From contig OZ244905.1 in NCBI GenBank assembly GCA_965221695.1, forward strand, positions 1,696,001 through 1,760,000: a stretch of DNA of 64,000 nt. The letters are read 5' to 3'. The position numbers and the translations under genes are program-made. Each line of letters begins with the position of its first letter. Within the stretch, counting starts at the first letter, position 1. Shown piece after piece: positions 2,803-57,352 of the stretch. This DNA comes from Gammaproteobacteria bacterium. GTDB lineage: Bacteria; Pseudomonadota; Gammaproteobacteria; Eutrophobiales; Eutrophobiaceae. The notes below the pieces were generated by a model that searched no databases, was not told the origin of the DNA, and saw only the letters and a list, made by a program, of their open reading frames with translations.

Positions 2803-2831
2803 GGAACCTCTGATTAAGTCTCAGAGGTTCC
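2803..2831. repeat. Family A short palindrome (29 bp) with TTAA duplication
   Basis: TTAA-GGAACCTCTGA-TTAAGTC-TCAGAGGTTCC-TTAA. Confidence 0.9.
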
Positions 2832-2855
2832 TTAATATCCACTATCGATAACTAG

Positions 2856-3094
2856 CCCGAATATCTCACCAATTCGCTTGTTAGCATCGGATAGATGTTT
2901 ACTGTCAATGAGTTATGGTAATCTGTCGAGTATGTCGCCATTACACACTGCGCTTGATGCGCCCTCGCTGGTCTTTTTTGCGTTAGCGGGCACATGCTCC
3001 CTCAACCAGAAGAACCACTATGCTTTCGGTCGCGAGTACCCGCTAACGCAAAAAATCCTCAGCGATCATCGCATCAATTGGTGAGATATTCGGG
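2856..3094. mobile_element. Family B MITE, 239 bp, copy 1
   Basis: TIR CCCGAATATCTCACCAATT / AATTGGTGAGATATTCGGG; CTAG on both flanks; long internal hairpin; near-identical copy at 36657-36895. Confidence 0.88.
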
Positions 3095-3136
3095 CTAGTA
3101 CTCTTTCAAGAAACTCTACTGAAAGGAGATTGTGAA

Positions 3137-3664: not shown

Positions 3665-3693
3665 GGAACCTCTGAGACTTAATCATAGGTTTC
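3665..3693. repeat. Family A short palindrome (opposite orientation to the 2803 copy)
   Basis: TTAG-GGAACCTCTGA-GACTTAA-TCATAGGTTTC; the flanking TTAG contains the stop of the upstream gene. Confidence 0.85.
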
Positions 3694-9352: not shown

Positions 9353-11572
9353 CTAAAAACTCAACTCCAGTTTAACGCCGCCTTCACGTCCGCGTCCGGG
9401 AGTGCCCTGGGCATAACCGAATGGCGCCACAGCCTGAAAATTCAAGGCCTGGTTAAAATAGTCCTTGTCTGTCAGGTTACTCCCGTAGGCCGCGATAGAC
9501 CAGCGTTCGCTTGCGGTGGTGTATTTGACGGTCGCGCTCAGCAGTCCGTAGCTTTCCACATTGATCCTGTTTAACGTGCTTGGGTTGCCGATAAACCCGC
9601 CGGTCCAGCCGTAATCCAACCGGGTATCCACCATCCCGTTGCCCAAATCCTGCGAATACTCGGCGCCGATGTTGTATTTGAAGTTGGGCGCTGTTCCCAG
9701 TTTATCGCCTTTCGTCAGGGTTACACCTTCTTCCACGTCGGTAATTTCCGTATGCATCAATCCCAGGCTGCCATCAAGCTGGAAATTGTCCGCTATCGCC
9801 CAGATAATCTCCGACTCCAAACCATAGGCCTCAGCGCCGGCGGCGCTCTGGACCACGGTCCGATTGGTGCCCTGAATGGAACGGGCAAATTGCAGGTCTT
9901 TGAAGTCCTGGTAGAACACTGTCATGTTCAGGCGCATACGCTGATCCATCAGGTCGCCCCGAAAGCCGATCTCGTACAGGTCGATGGTTTCTTCATCAAA
10001 CGGGGTAAGGCCGTAGTCATTTAACGGCAGGTTATTGCGCACCCGATCATTGATGCCGCCCGACCTGAACCCGCGCGCATACGCTGCGTACAGGAAAATA
10101 TCATCGGTGACTTGCAGTTCCAGGGACGCGCGGCCACTGATGGCTGACCAGGAATGGCTGTTGCTCTCCACCAGGTCGCCACTGTTGCCATTGGGGTCGT
10201 CGCCACGGTATTGCACTGATCTGCCGAGAAAGTTGGTTTCGGTGATGGTGATATCTTTTTCATCCCGGGTCCACCTGATACCGCCGGTGAATGACAACCG
10301 ATCAGTCAGGTCAAAAGTCCCCTGACCGTAGGCCGCATAGCTTTCTAGTTCATGGGGAAGTGTGTAGCGACCGCTGCTAATCGAAGCGCCGGGGACCGGT
10401 ATGCCCGGGTTGAAAACCGCCCCTTGAAAACGGCTGTCGTAGGATTCTTCGTGATAATAGAAAAAACCCGCGACCCAGTTCAGGCGGCTGTTCAATGAGA
10501 CCCCGTTAAGCTGAAGTTCCTGCGACCATATTTCGATATCGCGCTCGACTTCATGATTCTCGAACAGCGTTGCTTCCGTTGCGTCAAAATCATATTGTGA
10601 CTCCACATCCAGCTCCCGATATGTACTGGCGGACTTCACCGAGAGATTATCGGCAACATCCCAGTTCAGGGTGATCGCCGCGCCAAAACTTTGTGTGTCA
10701 TTGTAGGCTTCCAGGGTTGAGCCACTTTTTTCCGTGTCATAAAGCGGATCATCGGTAGGGTCGGTCCCAGCCGCAATCGCTTGTCTTATACCCGGCGAAT
10801 TGGGATTAATGCCCAGTAGCGAATTGGGCGATCCGTTGGTATCTGTATCGCTGTAATCCAATGAGACAAGCACTTCCAATTGATCGCTTGCATCCCAGCG
10901 CAGGTAAGCTCTTACCATGTCCGTCCCGCGGTCACCGAGGTCCTGGCCAAGCGCGTTTTTCTGGTAACCGTCCTGGTTCAGGGTTGCCGCGGATAGGCGC
11001 ACAGCCGCGGTATCGGAGATGGGCAGGTTAACACTGCCTTTCACATCTATACGTTCGTCAGAACCGATGGTCGCCTGGACTTTCCCGGCAAATTCGTCAT
11101 CGGGTTTTTGGGTGATATAACGCACCGCGCCGGCGGTCGCGTTACGACCGAACAGCGTGCCTTGAGGCCCGCGTAACACTTCTATCCGTTCCACATCCAA
11201 CAGGTGCAACAGGGAGCCGTCGCTGCGTCCGTAATAGGCATCGTCGATGTACAGCGCTACGGCCTGTTCCTGGTTAACCGCATTGCGATCAGCGCCCAGT
11301 CCGCGGATGATAATATTGCCGTTATTTGCGCCCAACCCGCCGCCTGCGCCGATGTGCACGTTCGGCAACTTGATGCTGAGTTGTTCCAGATCAGCGACAT
11401 TTTGCGCCTCCAGCGCTTCCGGACCGAAAGCAACCACGGACAGCGGTGTTTCCTGCAAACTTTCTGCGCGTTTACGTGCGGTAACAGTAACTTCTTCCAG
11501 CACGGACTGAGCAGGCACGACATTGCTCAGCAGAAAAGATAAACCGACCAGGACGATAGTTCGGATGTTCAT
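9353..11572 (-). CDS. TonB-dependent receptor
   Basis: LEEVTVTARKR, IEVLRGPQGTLFGRN, C-terminal Phe. Confidence 0.95.
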   Translation of the reverse strand: MNIRTIVLVGLSFLLSNVVPAQSVLEEVTVTARKRAESLQETPLSVVAFGPEALEAQNVADLEQLSIKLPNVHIGAGGGLGANNGNIIIRGLGADRNAVNQEQAVALYIDDAYYGRSDGSLLHLLDVERIEVLRGPQGTLFGRNATAGAVRYITQKPDDEFAGKVQATIGSDERIDVKGSVNLPISDTAAVRLSAATLNQDGYQKNALGQDLGDRGTDMVRAYLRWDASDQLEVLVSLDYSDTDTNGSPNSLLGINPNSPGIRQAIAAGTDPTDDPLYDTEKSGSTLEAYNDTQSFGAAITLNWDVADNLSVKSASTYRELDVESQYDFDATEATLFENHEVERDIEIWSQELQLNGVSLNSRLNWVAGFFYYHEESYDSRFQGAVFNPGIPVPGASISSGRYTLPHELESYAAYGQGTFDLTDRLSFTGGIRWTRDEKDITITETNFLGRSVQYRGDDPNGNSGDLVESNSHSWSAISGRASLELQVTDDIFLYAAYARGFRSGGINDRVRNNLPLNDYGLTPFDEETIDLYEIGFRGDLMDQRMRLNMTVFYQDFKDLQFARSIQGTNRTVVQSAAGAEAYGLESEIIWAIADNFQLDGSLGLMHTEITDVEEGVTLTKGDKLGTAPNFKYNIGAEYSQDLGNGMVDTRLDYGWTGGFIGNPSTLNRINVESYGLLSATVKYTTASERWSIAAYGSNLTDKDYFNQALNFQAVAPFGYAQGTPGRGREGGVKLELSF

Positions 11573-11659
11573 TTGTATTGTCTCCCCCGCTAATATTCCA
11601 GCTTACAATCATATTGGATGAAATAAGAGTTTTCTTATTATATGACGCCATTAAATTAA

Positions 11660-11810
11660 GGAACCTCTGATTAAGTCAGAGGTTCCTACGATACAAGGAT
11701 GTATCGTCAATATCAATGACTGTAAGGCATTGATATTGTGAGGAAAACAAAAATCGCATTTTTGTTTTCCGTACTCTGACAAGTCCAGGATGGACTTGTT
11801 CAGAGTTTTC
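11660..11810 (+). mobile_element. Family A long element, 151 bp, copy 1 (MITE-like, five hairpins)
   Basis: Flanked by TTAA/TTAA; ends GGAACCTCTGA...TCAGAGTTTTC; homologous 151-bp copies at 34589 and 57202. Confidence 0.9.
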
Positions 11811-11858
11811 TTAAATTATTATGCCATAATTCCCTTGTTTCCTCGGAGGCGTTAGATT

Positions 11859-13919: not shown

Positions 13920-16218
13920 ACCTTATCGCTGCGGTAACCCCATACGTAGGTTCGGACAGGTTGGCCAGGCAGAGGTTGGATTCCACCAGGCCCTCCAGGC
14001 TGGTCATCCCCCGGCAGTACTCTTCGCCGTTCAGGTTCTTGCCCCAGGCGGCCACCTCATAACGCTCGCCGGGGCCGAAGCGGAAGGCGGCGCGCGCGTC
14101 AAGGTTCCAGACTCCCTCCTGCTGGCTCAAGTTGGGCGCGTTGAGAAGGTCATAAGTGACCTCGTCTTTATACCACCAGTTGGTCTGCACCGAGAACACG
14201 CCGCCGCTCACGGCGAACTCTTTTCTGACCAGACCGTTGAAGGTCAGGTCCGGTGTATTCGGCAGCTTGTTGCCTTCAAATAGCCCCACTATCTCGCCCG
14301 GGTTGTCGATCTCGCCATCCAGCAGTCCGACACCCGCGATCAACAGCCAACCCCCTTCAGGCGCCCATTGCAGTTCCACTTCCCCGCCTTTCAGACTGGC
14401 TTCGGGCACGTTCAGCAAACGCGGTATCGCCACGCCGATTTCAGGATGAACCAGGGGCTGGAATGAATGCAGGTTGCTCCAGTCGTAATAGAAGATCGCG
14501 CCGTTCAGTTGCAGGGAATTATTCATCCATGAAGTTTTGGCCCCGACCTCGTAGGCCCATAGAACTTCCGGTTCCACGCTTTCCGCGGCGTTGCCGAACA
14601 AGGCTTGCAAGGCAGCCAGACTGAAACCGCCGCCCTTGAAGCCGCGGGAGATACTGCCATACAGCAGCACATCATCGCTGGCCTGCCAGTCCAGGGCAAA
14701 ACGCGCGCCCCAATCCGTTGAATCATAATCCAGAATCTCCGCGGGCAGGAGCGATAAACCCGGCAGGTTCGGAATCTCATCCAGACCGGGCAGGAAATCG
14801 TTGCTCGCTGGCGTGCAGCCCGCGCCGACACAACGCACTGAAGGATTGTTCTGGCCTTGCTTGGTTTCCTTGGTCCATCTCAAGCCGACTGTGGCTGTCA
14901 GGTTGGACTGCATATCATATTCGGCCTGACCGTAAACGGAATAGACCTCGTTATCCTGGGTAACAATGGTATTCGGCACCAGGTTGAAATCTCTCGGTCC
15001 GGCCGGGGCCAGCGGGACCGGTGGTATCCTGCGCACCGCGGTAGCGTATTCACCTTCCTCGAAGAACCAGTAAAACCCGGCAATCCAGCGCAGGTCACCT
15101 TCGTCCGCGGACTGCAGTCGCAGTTCCTGGGACCATTGTTCGTATTCCCCGTCCTGGTAAAACTGGAAACCCATGTTGGGACTGGCATCCGAATCCTCTG
15201 CGAATTCCACTTCAAATTCCTCGTAGGCCGTGACCGATATTACCGTGAACGCATCCAGGTCCCATTCCGCCCTGAACGAGGTACCCCACAAATCGACGTT
15301 CTCCTTCATTTCCAGGTTGCCGAAAGTATCTTCCCAATCCTGGTACTGGTGGTTGAAACCGGTCGAATCGACACAGTTGGGGTTGTTCTGGGGAACAAGA
15401 TCATCAGCAGGAACGGAACAGCGCTGCAACCGATTGGCGGGGTCTTGCAGCCCGACATTCTTATAGGGATCCGGGTTGCTGCGGGAAATGCCGCCGTGGA
15501 CATTGAACAGCAGGTCCAGGCTGTCGCTGGGTTGCACGCGGAATTGGCCACGCATCGCCTGACGCTGGTAATTCCCGGTATCCTTGCCCAGGGTCTGGTT
15601 GTTCCACACGCCATCCCGGATGTTGCTGGAAAACGCAATACGCGCCGCCGCGTTCTCGCCCAGCGCCACACCGCCGCCGGCCTCTATGTCGAATTGATCA
15701 TAACGTCCATAGCCGGCCTCAAGATAACCGTTCAACCCGTCATCCACGTTCGGTTTGCGGCTGATATAGTTCACCGCGCCGGCCGTGGTATTACGCCCGA
15801 ACAACGTGTTCTGGGGACCGCGCAAAACCTCTACCCGCTCCATGTCGAAGGTGTTGAAGGTCACGGCAAAAGGCGAGTTCAGAGCCACATCGTCCAGGTA
15901 CACACCCACTGCGCCGACCACGTTCAGGTGAAAGTCCGCAGTGCCCACGCCGCGGATAAAATAATTTATCTTTGAGCCGCCCTGGGGCAGAATCGCTGCA
16001 TTGGGCACGTGCAGCATGATCTCCTCAGCGCTTTGCACGCCCAGCTCATCCAGGTTGTCACCGGTGAATGCTTGTACGGAGATGGGCACATCCTGCAGGG
16101 ATTCAGCCCGTTTCTGGGCAGTTACCACGATTTCCTCGAGTTGTGCGCTGACAAGCGACGGATTAAGAATAACGACTAAAAAAACAGTTAGTGATCGTAC
16201 AATAAACTTGGCTCTCAC
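13912..16218 (-). CDS. TonB-dependent receptor
   Basis: LEEIVVTAQKR, VEVLRGPQNTLFGRN; overlaps the oxygenase start. Confidence 0.94.
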   Translation of the reverse strand: MRAKFIVRSLTVFLVVILNPSLVSAQLEEIVVTAQKRAESLQDVPISVQAFTGDNLDELGVQSAEEIMLHVPNAAILPQGGSKINYFIRGVGTADFHLNVVGAVGVYLDDVALNSPFAVTFNTFDMERVEVLRGPQNTLFGRNTTAGAVNYISRKPNVDDGLNGYLEAGYGRYDQFDIEAGGGVALGENAAARIAFSSNIRDGVWNNQTLGKDTGNYQRQAMRGQFRVQPSDSLDLLFNVHGGISRSNPDPYKNVGLQDPANRLQRCSVPADDLVPQNNPNCVDSTGFNHQYQDWEDTFGNLEMKENVDLWGTSFRAEWDLDAFTVISVTAYEEFEVEFAEDSDASPNMGFQFYQDGEYEQWSQELRLQSADEGDLRWIAGFYWFFEEGEYATAVRRIPPVPLAPAGPRDFNLVPNTIVTQDNEVYSVYGQAEYDMQSNLTATVGLRWTKETKQGQNNPSVRCVGAGCTPASNDFLPGLDEIPNLPGLSLLPAEILDYDSTDWGARFALDWQASDDVLLYGSISRGFKGGGFSLAALQALFGNAAESVEPEVLWAYEVGAKTSWMNNSLQLNGAIFYYDWSNLHSFQPLVHPEIGVAIPRLLNVPEASLKGGEVELQWAPEGGWLLIAGVGLLDGEIDNPGEIVGLFEGNKLPNTPDLTFNGLVRKEFAVSGGVFSVQTNWWYKDEVTYDLLNAPNLSQQEGVWNLDARAAFRFGPGERYEVAAWGKNLNGEEYCRGMTSLEGLVESNLCLANLSEPTYGVTAAIRFE

Positions 16219-16282: not shown

Positions 16283-16309
16283 GGAAGCTCTGACTTAATC
16301 AGAGTTTCC
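16283..16309. repeat. Family A short palindrome (27 bp)
   Basis: GGAAGCTCTGA-CTTAA-TCAGAGTTTCC. Confidence 0.85.
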
Positions 16310-18902: not shown

Positions 18903-18935
18903 TCAAGAAGCTCTGACTTAATCAGAGCTTCTTGA
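18903..18935. repeat. Family A short palindrome
   Basis: TCAAGAAGCTCTGA-CTTAA-TCAGAGCTTCTTGA, perfect arms, about 30 bp downstream of the metK stop. Confidence 0.85.
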
Positions 18936-34588: not shown

Positions 34589-34739
34589 GGAACATCTGAT
34601 TATGTCAGATGTTCCTACGATACAAGGATGTATCGGCAAAATCAATGACTGTAAGGCATTGTTTTTATGGGGAAAACAAAAATCACATTTTTGTTTTCCG
34701 TACTCTGACAAGTCCAGGATGGACTTGTTCAGAGTTTCC
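34589..34739 (+). mobile_element. Family A long element, 151 bp, copy 2
   Basis: Colinear with the 11660 copy; flanks TACA/TATA; a further degenerate short palindrome at about 34750-34777. Confidence 0.9.
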
Positions 34740-34817
34740 TATATGATACGGGATGCCCTGATTTATCAGAGCTTCCTGAATTTTACGTTCGCTGACTACC
34801 TGCATCGGAGAAAAAAA

Positions 34818-36656
34818 ATGGACCAGGCGCTGGAGATTCTGCGCGCTACTTTTGGATATCGGGACTTTCGCGGCGAGCAACAGCCTATCATCAACCATAT
34901 CATCGCAGGCAACGATGCCTTGGTACTGATGCCGACCGGCGGTGGTAAGTCACTGTGCTACCAGATTCCTGCGATGATCCGTCCCGGCACGGCCATCATC
35001 ATTTCGCCTCTGATTGCCCTGATGCAGGATCAGGTCGGCGCGTTGTTGCAGTTCGGGGTAAGGGCTGCCTACCTCAATTCGACCCTGCCGATACAAACGG
35101 CCCAGGAAACGGAACAGGCGCTGCTGAGTAATGATATAGACCTGCTTTATATTGCGCCGGAACGCTTGCTCCAGGAACGTACCCTGACATTGTTGGAACG
35201 GACACAGCTTGCCCTGTTTGCGATTGACGAGGCGCATTGCGTCTCCCAATGGGGGCATGATTTTCGCAAAGACTACCTGGCGCTGGAACAATTACACCAG
35301 CGCTTTCCGGCAACGCCCCGCATCGCCCTGACCGCGACCGCGGATGAACGGACCCGGCATGAAATTCGGGAACGCCTGGGACTGAAACAGGCAAAAGTGT
35401 TTATCAGCGGGTTTAACCGCCCGAATATCCAGTACCGGATTACGGCCAAGCTGCAAGAACGCAAGCAACTACTGAGTTTCCTGGAGACGGAGCACAAAGG
35501 AGATGCCGGGATCGTCTATTGCCTGTCCCGAAAAAAGACCGAAGCCATTGCTGAATGGTTAAGCCAGCAGGGACGCACAGCCCTGCCCTACCATGCAGGA
35601 CTTGGAACGACCACACGCTCCCGGCACCAGCAACGCTTCCTGCAGGAAGAAGGGGTCATTATCGTCGCCACGATCGCCTTCGGTATGGGTATCGACAAAC
35701 CGGATGTGCGTTTTGTTGCCCACCTGGACCTGCCCAAGAGTATTGAGGCCTATTACCAGGAAACCGGGCGCGCAGGACGGGATGGCAGCGCCGCCGATGC
35801 CTGGATGGTGTATGGGCTGGAAGACGTGGTAAAACTGCGACAAATGCTGGAAATGTCAGATGCGGATGAAAGCCACAAACGGATTGAGAGATATAAACTG
35901 GATTCCATGCTGGGGCTGTGCGAGCTCACCAGTTGCCGGCGTCATGCGTTGTTGCAGTACTTTGGAGAAGAGTCGCCATCCCGTTGTGAAAATTGCGATA
36001 CCTGTCTGCGCCCGGTCGAAACCTGGGACGGCACAACCGCGGCCCGCAAAGCCTTGTCCTGTGTTTACCGCAGCGGCCAGCGTTTTGGCGCCAGGCACCT
36101 CATCGACATACTGCTGGGAAAAGAAAACGACAAAGTGAGAAAGTTTCACCATCAACGGCTGAGCACCTTTGGTATTGGCGAAGAACTGAGCATAGAGCAG
36201 TGGCGCTCCGTGTTCAGACAACTGATTGCGCGGCGTTTTCTGACTGTGGATATGAAAGGTTTTGGTTCCCTGCAACTGACCGAGCTGAGCAGACCGTTAT
36301 TGCAGGGCGAGACGGAAGTTCACTTCCGCAAAGATGAGAAGGTTAAATCAACGCCGCGAAAACAACGTAAATCGCTTGGAGAAGCCGGCGACGCAGCGCT
36401 ACTGGAAAAACTCAAGGCGCATCGGAAGCAGTTGGCTGTGGAGCAGAGCCTGCCGCCTTATGTGATCTTCCATGATACAACCCTGGTCGAAATGGCGCTG
36501 AGTCTGCCTTCCAACCCGGATGAATTGTTACAGGTCAGCGGAGTGGGTGAGCACAAGCTGAAGAAATACGGTGACAGCTTTCTCGCAGTCATTGTATCGC
36601 ACCGGGATGGGCTGTCTGACAAACAAAATGAAGTGAACAGGTCCCGCCAGAGCTAA
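34818..36656 (+). CDS. recQ: ATP-dependent DNA helicase RecQ
   Basis: [49 protein letters not shown] and HRDC domains; GGAG RBS. Confidence 0.97.
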
Positions 36657-36895
36657 CCCGAAAATCTCACCAATACACTTGTTAGCATTAGATAGATGTT
36701 TGCTGTCAATGAGTTATGATAATCTGCCGAGTATGTTGCCATTACACACTGCGCTTGATGCGCCCTCGCTGGTCTTTTTTGCGTTAGCGGGCACATGCTC
36801 CCTCAACCAGAAGAACCACTATGCTTTCGGTCGCGAGCACCCGCTAACGCAAAAAATCCTCAGCGATCATCGCATCAATTGGTGAGATTTTCGGG
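36657..36895. mobile_element. Family B MITE, 239 bp, copy 2
   Basis: TIR CCCGAAAATCTCACCAAT / ATTGGTGAGATTTTCGGG; CTAA direct repeat on both flanks. Confidence 0.88.
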
Positions 36896-37450
36896 CTAAA
36901 AGAAAAAGCCGATCCCTCCACCAAGCATGGTAGTTTCGTCCAGGAGAATTTCCCGCTTGACGATCTCCCAACCGAGTGAGTTCGTCGCGCGCCGCAACAC
37001 ATCTATCTTTTCACCGCTGTAGATATCCTTGAAACGCGTATGCCGCAAGCGGGTTACGATAAAGTACGAGCGTACCCGGTAGGTATCTGCCGCATCCAAT
37101 GGCTCGATCTGCACATTGCTCACGTGATGTCGCAGCATGGAATGGGGTCGCTCGATATGGTCCCGGCCGGTGAGCAATTTGCGCACCCGAAGGCCCATGC
37201 GTTCCTTGTCATCATCAAAATTGGAGCCGCCGAATCCGGCGCTGAAACCCTCGCGCACCTGCTCCTCATAGACGAAGCTGCGCGCAGGCATGTAGTAGTG
37301 TATTTCGTCTGCCAGCAATTCATACCATTGCTCGAACTCGCGGTTGTCGAGCAGGCGCGCCTCGGCATACAGGAATTGCTCGACCTCCCATTGCAGTTCC
37401 GGCGTTACGCTAACAGGAGTATGGACAGGGACTGGTTGCGGATTATTCAT
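36896..37450 (-). CDS. Aromatic ring-hydroxylating dioxygenase beta subunit
   Basis: VEQFLYAEARLLD...IHYYMP...RHHVSNV...IVKREILLD. Confidence 0.92.
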   Translation of the reverse strand: MNNPQPVPVHTPVSVTPELQWEVEQFLYAEARLLDNREFEQWYELLADEIHYYMPARSFVYEEQVREGFSAGFGGSNFDDDKERMGLRVRKLLTGRDHIERPHSMLRHHVSNVQIEPLDAADTYRVRSYFIVTRLRHTRFKDIYSGEKIDVLRRATNSLGWEIVKREILLDETTMLGGGIGFFF

Positions 37451-39008: not shown

Positions 39009-39035
39009 GGAAACTCTGATTAAGTCAGAGGTTGC
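39009..39035. repeat. Family A short palindrome (27 bp) with TTAA duplication
   Basis: TTAA-GGAAACTCTGA-TTAAG-TCAGAGGTTGC-TTAA, 11 bp before the sulfatase ATG. Confidence 0.88.
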
Positions 39036-50118: not shown

Positions 50119-50147
50119 GAAAACTCTGACTTATTCTCAGAGGTTCC
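50119..50147. repeat. Family A short palindrome (29 bp)
   Basis: TTAA-GAAAACTCTGA-CTTATTC-TCAGAGGTTCC-TAA; abuts the receptor stop codon. Confidence 0.82.
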
Positions 50148-52396
50148 TAAAAATTATATCTTACGTTGGCGCCCCAGGTACGCGGCGGTTGATAAGTGCG
50201 CAAATTTCCGAACGTTGTAGAGCGAAAGCCGTTGCTTTCGGCATCCTCATCGAGCAGGTTGCGGGCATAAGCCGCTATGCTCCACTTGCCGCTGCTGTGG
50301 TCGAATTGCAACCTGGCATTGACGCGCGTGTAGGAATCGCCGCTGTTCAACGGGTCTTTGAAGACTGACCAGTAGCGCTCATCGTCCATGTAATAGTAAT
50401 CGCCGCGCAAGGTTATATTGCCGGACGGCGCCGGCATGGTATACGCAGCCCCGAAACCGAATATGAATTCCGGCGAGCGGGGCAAGGGGTTGCCGCGCTG
50501 GTCGATACTCGGGTTTTGCGGTACGTTGAGGTCAGGCGCCATCAGATCCTTCAGTTCCGTGTCCAGGTAGGAAAACATGCCATCGATCACGAACTGGTCA
50601 GTCACGGCCAGAACCATATCCGCTTCGATGCCGAATACTTCCGCATCGCCGGCGTTGCGCACATTGGCGTAACCCTGGGCGTTGTCGGCCAGGTCTACAT
50701 TCTGGTGGATATTCTCATAATCATAGTAGAAAGCGCTCGCGTTCAAGCGCAGTTTTCCATCTGCCAGGGTGGACTTGAAGCCGCCCTCGAAAGACCAGAT
50801 AGTCTCAGGTTTCACCGCCTCGGGCACAGGACCAAACAGTACGGTATTATAGCCGCCGGATTTGAAGCCGCGGGTGGCGCCGAAGAAAATCATCACGTCC
50901 TCATTCAGGAAAAAATCGATGCCGAACCTGGGGGTAACGCTGTCACTGTCGGTCTCCCCCTGGTAGGCAACCGTTGGCGGGCCACTGGGTTTCGTCGGTC
51001 GGTCGGCAACCAGTTCCGGGCCGGTCATGGCCGGGGTGATGGGTACGAACGAATAACTCTCGAAGTCGATCTCTTTCTCTTCGTCACTGTAACGGATACC
51101 CACATGCGCGCGCAGATGATCGTTGAAGCGGTAGCTGGCCTGGCCAAAGAGCGCCCAGGCAAAGGTATCCAGGTAGGAAAAACCGTGAATAAAGACCGAG
51201 TCGTAAGTGCCGCCTACCGTCGGCCCGACTGCAAATTGACCGAGGCTGAAGGGAAACGGATAGTCATGCAACGCTTCATCATCAAACAGGAACGCTCCGA
51301 CCACCCAGTTCAAGGGCCCATCGCCGGTGGAAGACACCTGGAACTCCTGTTGCAAGAACTCAGAATCGGTAATGGGGTCGTTAAACCCGCCGGCGTTGAT
51401 CTCGGTGAGATCAAAATCCACCTGGTAGCGGTTTTCATCCTCCCGGTAACTGGTCAGGGATTTTATCTCCACGCTGCCCAGGTCCCAGGTAATTTCAGCG
51501 CCCAAGCCCCAGGCTTCCGTTTTGTTATTGGCTGTGACATCGCGGTATGTATCCCTGATATCCGGTAACACCGTGCCGCCGGAAAAAGCGACATACGGGT
51601 TATCGGTTAATGGCGGACTCACGTGGGAAGCGGTGCCGCGGCTGGATTGATCGTCCGTGTAATCGCCGAACAAGCGTATGCTGACAGCATCCGATACCTG
51701 GAACAGCAACTGGGTTCGGAACGACTTCACGTCAGTGGTATCCTCCCCTTTACCGGTAAAACTGTTATCCGTATAACCGTTATTGTCATGGAACAGGCCG
51801 GCAACACGAAACGCGGCGTGCGAGCTGATAGGGACATTCAGCGCGCCCTCTACCCGGACGGTACCATAATTGCCGCCGCCAACATCAATATAACCACCGG
51901 TTTCCTGTTCAGGTTTCCGGCTCAGGAAGTGAATCACGCCGCCGGTCGCGTTTCTGCCGAACAGGGTGCCTTGCGGACCCTTAATCACTTCCACCCGCTC
52001 GGCATCGTAAAAGTCGCTGATAATGGAAGACAGTCTTGGCAAATAAACGCCGTCGATATGCACCGCGGTGGTGGGTTCGAGGCCCGGTGTCAAGGTGTCG
52101 GTGCCGACGCCGCGCACATAAGCGAAACCATGGCCGGCCAGCGGCTCAAGGTGTAGTCCCGGGACCTTGAGTTGAATATCCAGTGTTGACTCGATCCCGA
52201 CTGCTTTCAGTTGCGCATCAGTAAAGGCATTAATGGCGATGGGAACATCCTGCACGGATTCAGCGCGTCTTTGCGCCGTGACAACAATCTCTTCCAGCAG
52301 AGCGGAACGCTGTGCTGATACCGATGAAGCGCCGGAAACCGCTGCTACAATACACAATATCTGAAACAAGCTATTGTTTGACATAGGTTTTAACAT
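50147..52396 (-). CDS. TonB-dependent receptor
   Basis: LEEIVVTAQRR, VIKGPQGTLFGRN, C-terminal YNF; start 52396 or 52384. Confidence 0.94.
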   Translation of the reverse strand: MLKPMSNNSLFQILCIVAAVSGASSVSAQRSALLEEIVVTAQRRAESVQDVPIAINAFTDAQLKAVGIESTLDIQLKVPGLHLEPLAGHGFAYVRGVGTDTLTPGLEPTTAVHIDGVYLPRLSSIISDFYDAERVEVIKGPQGTLFGRNATGGVIHFLSRKPEQETGGYIDVGGGNYGTVRVEGALNVPISSHAAFRVAGLFHDNNGYTDNSFTGKGEDTTDVKSFRTQLLFQVSDAVSIRLFGDYTDDQSSRGTASHVSPPLTDNPYVAFSGGTVLPDIRDTYRDVTANNKTEAWGLGAEITWDLGSVEIKSLTSYREDENRYQVDFDLTEINAGGFNDPITDSEFLQQEFQVSSTGDGPLNWVVGAFLFDDEALHDYPFPFSLGQFAVGPTVGGTYDSVFIHGFSYLDTFAWALFGQASYRFNDHLRAHVGIRYSDEEKEIDFESYSFVPITPAMTGPELVADRPTKPSGPPTVAYQGETDSDSVTPRFGIDFFLNEDVMIFFGATRGFKSGGYNTVLFGPVPEAVKPETIWSFEGGFKSTLADGKLRLNASAFYYDYENIHQNVDLADNAQGYANVRNAGDAEVFGIEADMVLAVTDQFVIDGMFSYLDTELKDLMAPDLNVPQNPSIDQRGNPLPRSPEFIFGFGAAYTMPAPSGNITLRGDYYYMDDERYWSVFKDPLNSGDSYTRVNARLQFDHSSGKWSIAAYARNLLDEDAESNGFRSTTFGNLRTYQPPRTWGANVRYNF

Positions 52397-57201: not shown

Positions 57202-57352
57202 GGAAACTCTGACTTAGTCAGAGCTTCCTGCGATACAGGGATGTATCGACAAAATCAGTGACGAAAAGTCATTGATTTTGAGAGCAAAACAAAAATCGCA
57301 TTTTTGTTTTGCGTGCTCTGACAAGTCCAGGATGGACTTGTTCAGAGCTTCC
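57202..57352 (+). mobile_element. Family A long element, 151 bp, copy 3
   Basis: CTAA direct repeat on both flanks; supplies the last codons and stop of hutI. Confidence 0.9.

Follow-up and report, generated by a model that had tools for sequence, protein, structure and literature searches.

A 151-bp IS5-type MITE with two conserved GGA hairpin loops of CsrA/RsmA-like context in gammaproteobacterial genomes

The Correia elements (CREE/NEMIS) of Neisseria and the ERIC and BOX elements of enterobacteria and pneumococci are abundant, hairpin-rich, intergenic non-coding repeats that are co-transcribed with adjacent genes and are reported to affect the processing or the stability of transcripts. 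The BOX family is modular, Correia elements have characteristic 26-bp ends and a TA duplication, and we know of no Correia, ERIC or BOX family that carries GGA loops of the CsrA type. REPs are not known to have terminal inverted repeats, target-site duplications or a DDE-type insertion sequence (IS) partner, and the IS5 group of ISs is defined by a 4-bp duplication at YTAR targets (ISfinder). In the consensus obtained for CsrA by systematic evolution of ligands by exponential enrichment (SELEX), RUACARGGAUGU, ACA and GGA are fully conserved and GGA is preferred in hairpin loops, according to a passage of PMC4347634 citing Dubey 2005. We describe here a 151-bp miniature inverted-repeat transposable element (MITE) made of five hairpins, two of which display GGA loops that appear to be kept by selection and would be candidate sites for CsrA. 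It is present in three copies in a stretch of 64,000 nt (the window; OZ244905.1, GCA_965221695.1, positions 1696001-1760000, forward strand) from a Gammaproteobacteria bacterium (Eutrophobiales; Eutrophobiaceae). The source genome (G000) is a single 3.54-Mb contig with 55% G+C and is 96.85% complete; G001, G014, G022 and G030 denote other genomes, and L-numbers denote fetched loci.

The initial annotation of this DNA had described three copies of exactly 151 bp in the same orientation, each built almost entirely of five hairpins. Their coordinates and 4-bp flanks (Table 1) were all borne out, and the five-hairpin make-up was confirmed by folding copy 1, for which the predicted structure has an energy of -74.9 kcal/mol (z = -12.35; 0/200 shuffles as good). 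The two other copies are 93% and 86% identical to copy 1 in a repeat search, and the hairpin-2 loop reads GGGA in copy 3. The three compensatory differences first noted between copies (CCTCTGA/TCAGAGG vs CATCTGA/TCAGATG, GGAAAAC/GTTTTCC vs GCAAAAC/GTTTTGC and CAATATC/GATATTG vs CAAAATC/GATTTTG) are present, and the A-to-G change in hairpin 3 of copy 3 does create a G-U pair on the plus strand only. The location of copy 2 upstream of recQ, in sense, and that of copy 3, 58 nt past a hutF-like gene, were also confirmed. At the genome scale, the count of three, correct for the window, proved to be an underestimate: a BLAST search with the three window copies retrieved 86 full-length copies in the source genome, 43 on each strand, 10 of which have one identical 149-mer in common.

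The GGA loops were found to be better conserved than the other loops both within the source genome and across lineages; the initial annotation had held that its reading would fail if they were not. Over the 86 copies, the six GGA positions showed 6 departures from the consensus vs about 15 expected from 128 other non-diagnostic positions (Poisson P = 0.007, a value overstated by the relatedness of the copies). One departure affected the GGA of hairpin 2 and five that of hairpin 5, against 14-15 in three-base stretches of loops 1, 3 and 4. The cross-lineage sample consisted of 22 elements picked by their terminal repeats only, with the internal loops unselected: eight from four other genomes and 14 from metagenome contigs, the latter being those among 124 loci that have the end palindrome at one end only. 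In this sample, with GGA counts read by eye from the aligned rows, GGA was present in the hairpin-2 loop of 21/22 elements (the remaining one, which is decayed, has GGGG) and in the hairpin-5 loop of 20/22 (of the two others, one has CGA and one a deleted loop). Where identity to copy 1 has fallen to 54-77%, the majority of the stem positions and of the remaining loop positions have changed and GGA has been kept. The five-hairpin plan was observed in 14/14 metagenome elements, with loops 1, 3 and 4 devoid of GGA. The stems of hairpin 2 have no common sequence between some families, and in a G+C-rich family hairpins 2, 3 and 4 have been wholly replaced, with the plan and both GGA loops retained.

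A larger alignment (A1) comprised 76 elements, 51 of which were fetched with the hairpin-5 32-mer and are hence uninformative on hairpin 5. The two Gs of hairpin 2 (G38 and G39) were invariant in 76/76 elements, and the other 14 invariant columns were located at the ends or at three scattered internal positions. The first base of the hairpin-2 loop was free (A 21, G 43, T 11, C 1). In a divergent subset of 15 lineages (less than 80% identity to copy 1 and less than 90% to one another), 13 internal columns outside the search-pattern ends were invariant or at least 85% conserved, and the CA.GGA string of hairpin 2 accounts for six of these 13; of the hairpin-2 consensus string, nothing but CA-N-GGA remains in distant lineages. 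Selection on the two GGA loops is well supported.

The loops are not a requirement of the ends that surround them. GGA occupied 25/69 plus-strand loops of the 14 five-hairpin metagenome elements vs 2/67 on the minus strand, and only 7/283 loops, both strands included, of the other 110 same-ended metagenome elements. The transposase group therefore does not need GGA loops, and these loops are cargo of the five-hairpin family rather than part of the transposition machinery. The metagenome contigs L126-L249 have the same terminal repeats and YTAR flanks around many unrelated MITE families of 137-164 bp, so this IS5-type end appears to be widely reused; one same-ended family, of 159-161 bp, is a single long imperfect palindrome. 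In G030, which belongs to another genus, loci L109 and L113 are longer composite elements in which nested insertions split hairpin 2, and these insertions hold extra GGA-loop hairpins, one in the opposite orientation.

The initial annotation had tied the element to CsrA, and one canonical csrA gene was indeed found in the source genome (90 bits); its 91-aa product has the usual N-terminal sequence and an acidic tail and scores 89.4 bits against Pfam CsrA. A csrA gene was also detected in 5/5 other element-bearing genomes tested. As claimed, hairpin 2 of all three window copies agrees with RUACARGGAUGU at 12/12 positions, in the form in which the passage of PMC4347634 gives the consensus. In the predicted fold, both hairpin 2 and hairpin 5 are short and present GGA in the loop. 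The loop context that the lineages have in common presumably fits the RsmE-hcnA structural consensus, and to our knowledge no other bacterial reader of GGA loops has been described. CsrA is the best candidate reader of the GGA loops, given the fit of the motif, of its presentation in a hairpin and of the free first base of the loop, and since we know of no other reader; CsrA binding is plausible, and we predict it with nearly, if not quite, even confidence. No link between MITEs and CsrA or RsmA was found in the open full-text literature (subscription journals were outside this scope), where only the Rfam 12.0 paper was retrieved, with the terms in unrelated passages.

The Csr/Rsm small RNAs (sRNAs) were also searched for genome-wide in the source genome. 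CsrB gave 0 matches, and the best matches for RsmZ (14.3 bits) and RsmY (20 bits) did not reach the cut-off. The 20-bit RsmY match covers the 3' end of a cold-shock-like ORF (open reading frame) and the sequence just downstream. Neither a GGA-density scan nor a scan for the GacA/UvrY upstream box yielded a convincing candidate for a native Csr/Rsm sRNA in this genome. On the element itself, the sole match to the Csr/Rsm clan was RsmV on hairpin 2 (12 bits, E 0.21, cut-off 100).

The other half of the initial interpretation, a MITE with IS5-like ends inserting at YTAR targets, was upheld by the 86 copies, their flanks and the ends shared with an IS. Identical 4-mers were present on both sides of 63/86 copies, with 13 different 4-mers, so that the 4-bp target duplication is a genuine one. 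YTAR is matched by 49 of these 63 identical pairs, and 33 are TTAA. Each end has an 11-bp core, GGAANCTCTGA, which comparison with the IS lengthens to 18-19 bp. This partner, found in genomes of the same genus (L251, L255, L253 and L081), is an IS of 1149-1151 bp with TTAA or CTAA flanks; its ends agree with the MITE over the first 18 bases of the latter (hairpin 1, compared with L251 and L253) and at 16-17/19 bases of the MITE's right end. Part of the hairpin-5 stem is the inner part of this right inverted repeat. G001 holds two copies with TTAA flanks, L251 (1149 bp), with an open 313-aa ORF, and L255 (1151 bp), whose match lies within a 322-aa open frame, whereas the copies in G014 and G022 are interrupted. 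The close homologue at L081 (an in-frame stop being read as X) scored 325.6 bits on NF033581 (IS5 family, cut-off 140), 98 bits on Pfam DDE_Tnp_1 and 69.5 bits on DUF772. Among the IS5-family genes of plasmids in PLSDB, none exceeded 54.9% identity to the L251 protein, the nearest annotations being 'IS5 family transposase' and 'IS5-like element ISXfu1 family transposase', so the partner IS itself is undescribed.

An IS5-family transposase with matching terminal inverted repeats had been anticipated, and this expectation held for congeners, with an intact copy in G001, but failed for the source genome, in which PF01609 gave 0 matches and the IS protein query also none. The only multi-copy IS of that genome is a 1309-bp element with different ends. 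Its three copies (187834-189142, 440967-442275 and 2302880-2304188) are 99-100% identical, their ends begin TGAACCGCC and are unrelated to the MITE, and a 326-bp fragment lies at 1682079. We therefore firmly assign the element to the IS5-family MITEs, with its autonomous partner absent from the source genome, and, since the partner is missing, the 86 copies are probably stranded there at present.

Besides full-length copies, the source genome has partial, mini and expanded forms of the element. With one mismatch allowed, the 11-bp end motif was found genome-wide at 477 left and 467 right ends, and pairs with matching flanks fell into classes of 26-31 bp (52), about 151 bp (62) and about 223 bp (4). 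In the 223-bp variant, an insert of 72 bp brings three extra GGA motifs, making five in total. The terminal palindrome matched 108 times per strand in the source genome, and a reversed-pattern control gave 0 matches in all 61 genomes. It was detected in 18/22 genomes of the same genus, 23/36 of the same family and 4/24 from other families of the class, and the exact hairpin-5 32-mer was recovered from at least 68 loci in at least 13 assemblies titled uncultured Gamma- or Proteobacteria; plasmid and phage collections contained no element matches. Contigs of four DNA runs contained shorter element forms, with joints skipping 70-86 internal bases, and no clean empty site was seen in these contigs, which broke at repeats. 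In contigs of two public runs, window position 11602 was joined to 18993 through 227 other letters; this points to a strain variant in which about 7.4 kb beside copy 1 are missing or replaced.

The copies are intergenic. According to crude ORF calls (longest first, at least 100 aa), which also underlie the gene-orientation counts below, 9/86 copies begin at the base that follows the stop of a called ORF, this stop being supplied by the TAA of the target duplication. A further 7/86 include the stop codon of the neighbour in their outermost 12 nt at one end or the other. The stop codon (57342-57344) of the convergent imidazolonepropionase-like ORF lies inside the right terminal repeat of copy 3.

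Together, these data suggest the following model. The 1.15-kb IS5-group IS, which shares its ends, would mobilise the MITE in trans, with insertion at YTAR, mostly TTAA, and a 4-bp duplication, often on or beside TAA stop codons. The modular hairpins are cargo between the ends, hairpins 2 and 5 displaying GGA in a high-affinity CsrA/RsmA context, and a copy transcribed on the plus strand would yield an RNA with two CsrA-type sites, or with five if it is the 223-bp variant. The family would then either act as a dispersed sponge that titrates CsrA or recruit CsrA to the transcripts in which its copies lie. In its broadest form, the proposal is that IS5-type MITEs spread high-affinity CsrA/RsmA hairpins as selected cargo through many uncultured gammaproteobacterial lineages, that transposition adds or removes Csr control at gene ends, and that the at least 172 GGA hairpins of the source genome form a distributed sponge; we offer it tentatively, as a reading that may well not hold in full. 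We infer transcription of the copies, CsrA binding and any effect in the cell from sequence, and the initial interpretation of the element as a MITE carrying Csr modules is partly supported.

Several observations weigh against this proposal. At Rfam gathering thresholds, no member of the Csr/Rsm clan (CL00106) was found in the window, and a simple scan of the element revealed no plus-strand promoter or terminator; the scan gave one weak promoter-like site on the minus strand, and GC-rich variants are without the A/T-rich boxes. Each copy has no more than two sites, and the GGA triplets of hairpins 2 and 5 are 91 nt apart linearly; the distance between sites that a CsrA dimer can bridge is up to about 60 nt. 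Both ORFs that flank copy 1 are antisense to it. At gene 3' ends, 34 copies are sense and 46 antisense, at 5' ends 40 and 52, and within 60 nt the sense/antisense counts are 21/29 (3' ends) and 14/21 (5' ends), none of these differences being significant. With origin and terminus placed by GC skew, the copies divide evenly into those with a leading (43) and those with a lagging (43) GGA strand. As orientation is random, selection seems to act on the element lineage and not on each insertion. The reverse strand of copy 1 folds nearly as well as the plus strand (-73.9 kcal/mol, z = -13.0).

The stems covary. When alignment A1 was scored on the fold of copy 1, a single-member structure that favours the paired-cells measure, 92.2% of the cells were paired and two-sided changes were observed in 38/61 pairs; across lineages, hairpin 4 had two-sided changes in 12/13 pairs. 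None of 500 shuffles reached any of five structure measures. Related sequences can beat shuffles without structure, but the control with slid partners is immune to this objection, and here the covariation score was 0.246 vs at most 0.072. However, G:U and A:C cells were about equally frequent on the plus strand (90 vs 79; 32 vs 33 distinct combinations of position and type), and A:C cells on the plus strand would be G:U on the minus strand. This near-equality across lineages makes the stems look like DNA palindromes, and covariation does not separate RNA structure from the maintenance of a DNA palindrome. The 66 ungapped copies of the source genome alone gave 56 G:U vs 27 A:C cells, the copies not being independent. 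A wobble asymmetry computed from minimum free energy folds (310 vs 86) was inflated by consensus G:U pairs and was not relied on; minus three consensus positions, the count was 93 vs 45 (99 elements of exactly 151 nt, hand sum).

The source genome contains a second repeat of about 29 bp that starts TTAACATGGATG, followed by one or two ACAGGAT units (41 hits). It usually forms inverted pairs 25-200 bp apart and, once, arrays flanking a core of about 100 bp. Examples on G000:C1 are 780611/780652, 1190876/1190961 and 1395230-1395483, and one pair brackets a 151-bp MITE at 831782-831983. The CA(N)GGAT core of hairpin 2 recurs two to three times in each inverted end of this repeat, which leaves room for an explanation based on DNA binding and counts with the points listed above.

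In a first rival reading, the GGA loops of the same MITE are recognised by a factor other than CsrA and resemble CsrA sites by coincidence; this factor could be a protein, of the host or of the element, that binds DNA hairpins in extruded or single-stranded form, or a different RNA-binding factor. The stems behave as DNA palindromes (90 G:U vs 79 A:C), orientation is random with respect to transcription and replication, and the 41 hits of the second repeat have CA(N)GGAT where a free RNA loop is impossible. However, the centre of hairpin 2 is conserved alone, with its arms fully changed, an ill fit to a dimeric site on double-stranded DNA; the 110 same-ended elements without GGA loops indicate that the transposase does not need them; the consensus quoted in that passage of PMC4347634 is matched at 12/12 positions. 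Nor is another bacterial reader of GGA loops known to us. We regard this explanation as unlikely.

A second explanation, which we also judge improbable, is that the hairpins are kept as orientation-free stabilisers or insulators of transcript ends, comparable to REP, ERIC and Correia sequences, with GGA as a passenger. It would account for the intergenic position of the copies, of which 9/86 abut a stop codon and seven have one in their terminal 12 nt, for the equally good folding of both strands, for the lack of orientation bias and for a five-hairpin plan kept despite wholly different stems. It leaves unexplained, however, the invariance of the hairpin-2 GG (76/76) and the excess of GGA on the plus strand (25/69 vs 2/67), loops 1, 3 and 4 varying freely. 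The doubtful remaining view is that of a purely selfish MITE with covariation from template switching or gene conversion and a functionless GGA inherited from one ancestor: palindrome repair does yield compensatory changes without selection, the 149-mer identical in 10 copies makes conservation within the genome partly a matter of recency, and the shuffle tests overstate the signal of related sequences, but template switching copies arm onto arm and leaves the bases of the loop unprotected, at 54-77% identity to copy 1 the loops of hairpins 2 and 5 still have GGA in 21 and 20 of 22 elements, and the GGA positions of the source genome decay less (6 vs about 15 expected substitutions).

If the proposal of CsrA hairpins as selected cargo were true, the element would be a bacterial counterpart of the transposable elements by which binding sites for regulators are spread in eukaryotes. 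Neither MITEs nor IS5-family elements are out of the ordinary, but a MITE with the recognition hairpin of a global post-transcriptional regulator as conserved cargo is. Should the GGA loops bind CsrA, transposition could rewire a whole regulon, the copy number of the repeat could tune free CsrA, and there would be a candidate explanation for the lack of a recognisable CsrB/Rsm sRNA in the source genome. If the loops do not bind CsrA, their conservation points to another reader of hairpin loops in a mobile element.

Table 1. Coordinates of the MITE copies, of the parts of copy 1 and of the solo end palindromes in the window
Feature	Position	Strand	Remarks
Copy 1 of the 151-bp MITE	11660..11810	+	between two minus-strand ORFs
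Left 4-bp target-site duplication, copy 1	11656..11659	.	TTAA; flanking 4-mer
Right target-site duplication, copy 1	11811..11814	.	TTAA; flanking 4-mer
Hairpin 1	11660..11686	+	left terminal inverted repeat, then its own inverse; same 26-29-bp palindrome also a solo mini-element
Hairpin 2	11688..11707	+	8-bp stem, loop AGGA, GGA at 11697-11699
Hairpin 3	11708..11738	+	covarying stem, loop without GGA
Hairpin 4	11742..11770	+	A/T-rich stem, loop CGC
Hairpin 5	11773..11806	+	loop GGA at 11788-11790, context CAGGATG; 3' arm belongs to right terminal inverted repeat
Right terminal inverted repeat	11792..11810	-	matches IS end 16/19 (L081) to 17/19 (L251)
Copy 2	34589..34739	+	flanks TACA/TATA; divergent intergenic region, sense, about 80 nt upstream of likely recQ start
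Copy 3	57202..57352	+	duplication CTAA/CTAA; sense, 58 nt downstream of hutF-like ORF
Solo 29-bp end-only palindrome	2803..2831	.	flanks TTAA/TTAA
Degenerate solo 29-bp end-only palindrome	3665..3693	.	-
Solo 27-bp end-only palindrome	16283..16309	.	-
Solo 27-bp end-only palindrome, degenerate ends	18906..18932	.	-
Solo 26-bp end-only palindrome	34751..34776	.	11 bp downstream of copy 2
Solo 27-bp end-only palindrome	39009..39035	.	flanks TTAA/TTAA
Solo 29-bp end-only palindrome	50119..50147	.	-

A third MITE-like family, of about 246 bp, is present in the window at 2852-3097 and 36653-36898, the two copies being 95% identical. It has 18-bp inverted ends beginning CCCGAA, and its flanks (CTAG/CTAG and CTAA/CTAA) indicate that it is also a YTAR-type inserter; in four metagenome runs, its contig depth was far above that of its neighbours. 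The sole Rfam match in the window at gathering thresholds was an S-adenosylhomocysteine (SAH) riboswitch aptamer (RF01057) at 2607-2682 on the minus strand (64.6 bits vs a cut-off of 37). A 98-nt stretch that occurs three times within ORFs of the window (11103-11200, 15752-15849 and 51912-52009; 68-74% identity) probably reflects paralogous genes. Elsewhere in the source genome, long tandem and dispersed repeats of 0.4-3.6 kb with 85-99% identity, located at about 1.03-1.11 Mb and 2.32-2.34 Mb of G000:C1, probably belong to giant repetitive genes.

Compared with the known systems, the element resembles BOX in being modular, with forms of 84, 151 and 223 bp, but it has no sequence likeness to Correia, ERIC or BOX repeats, and it differs from Correia elements by its 4-bp duplication and IS5-type ends. 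Like REP/BIME sequences with their RAYT (REPINs), it is a dispersed palindromic intergenic repeat kept within a lineage; its terminal inverted repeats, its target-site duplications and its DDE-type IS partner set it apart from them. With the sponge RNAs CsrB, CsrC, RsmX, RsmY, RsmZ and RsmV it shares a series of short hairpins displaying GGA in the loop, hairpin 2 being the SELEX optimum in the form quoted in PMC4347634, as well as five GGA motifs in the 223-bp variant and a csrA gene in the same genome. However, it is present in many copies, the simple scan gave it no plus-strand promoter and no terminator, only 2/5 of its loops contain GGA, and it is mobile and found in both orientations. 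In its overall make-up it resembles the IS5-derived MITEs, which are also short, non-coding and present in many copies, with terminal inverted repeats and a 4-bp YTAR duplication, and its ends match those of a 1.15-kb IS encoding a DDE_Tnp_1/DUF772 transposase. It departs from these MITEs by its undescribed partner IS, by the end-only palindrome, complete in itself, with which it starts and which transposes or persists on its own as well, and by a conserved five-hairpin cargo inside.

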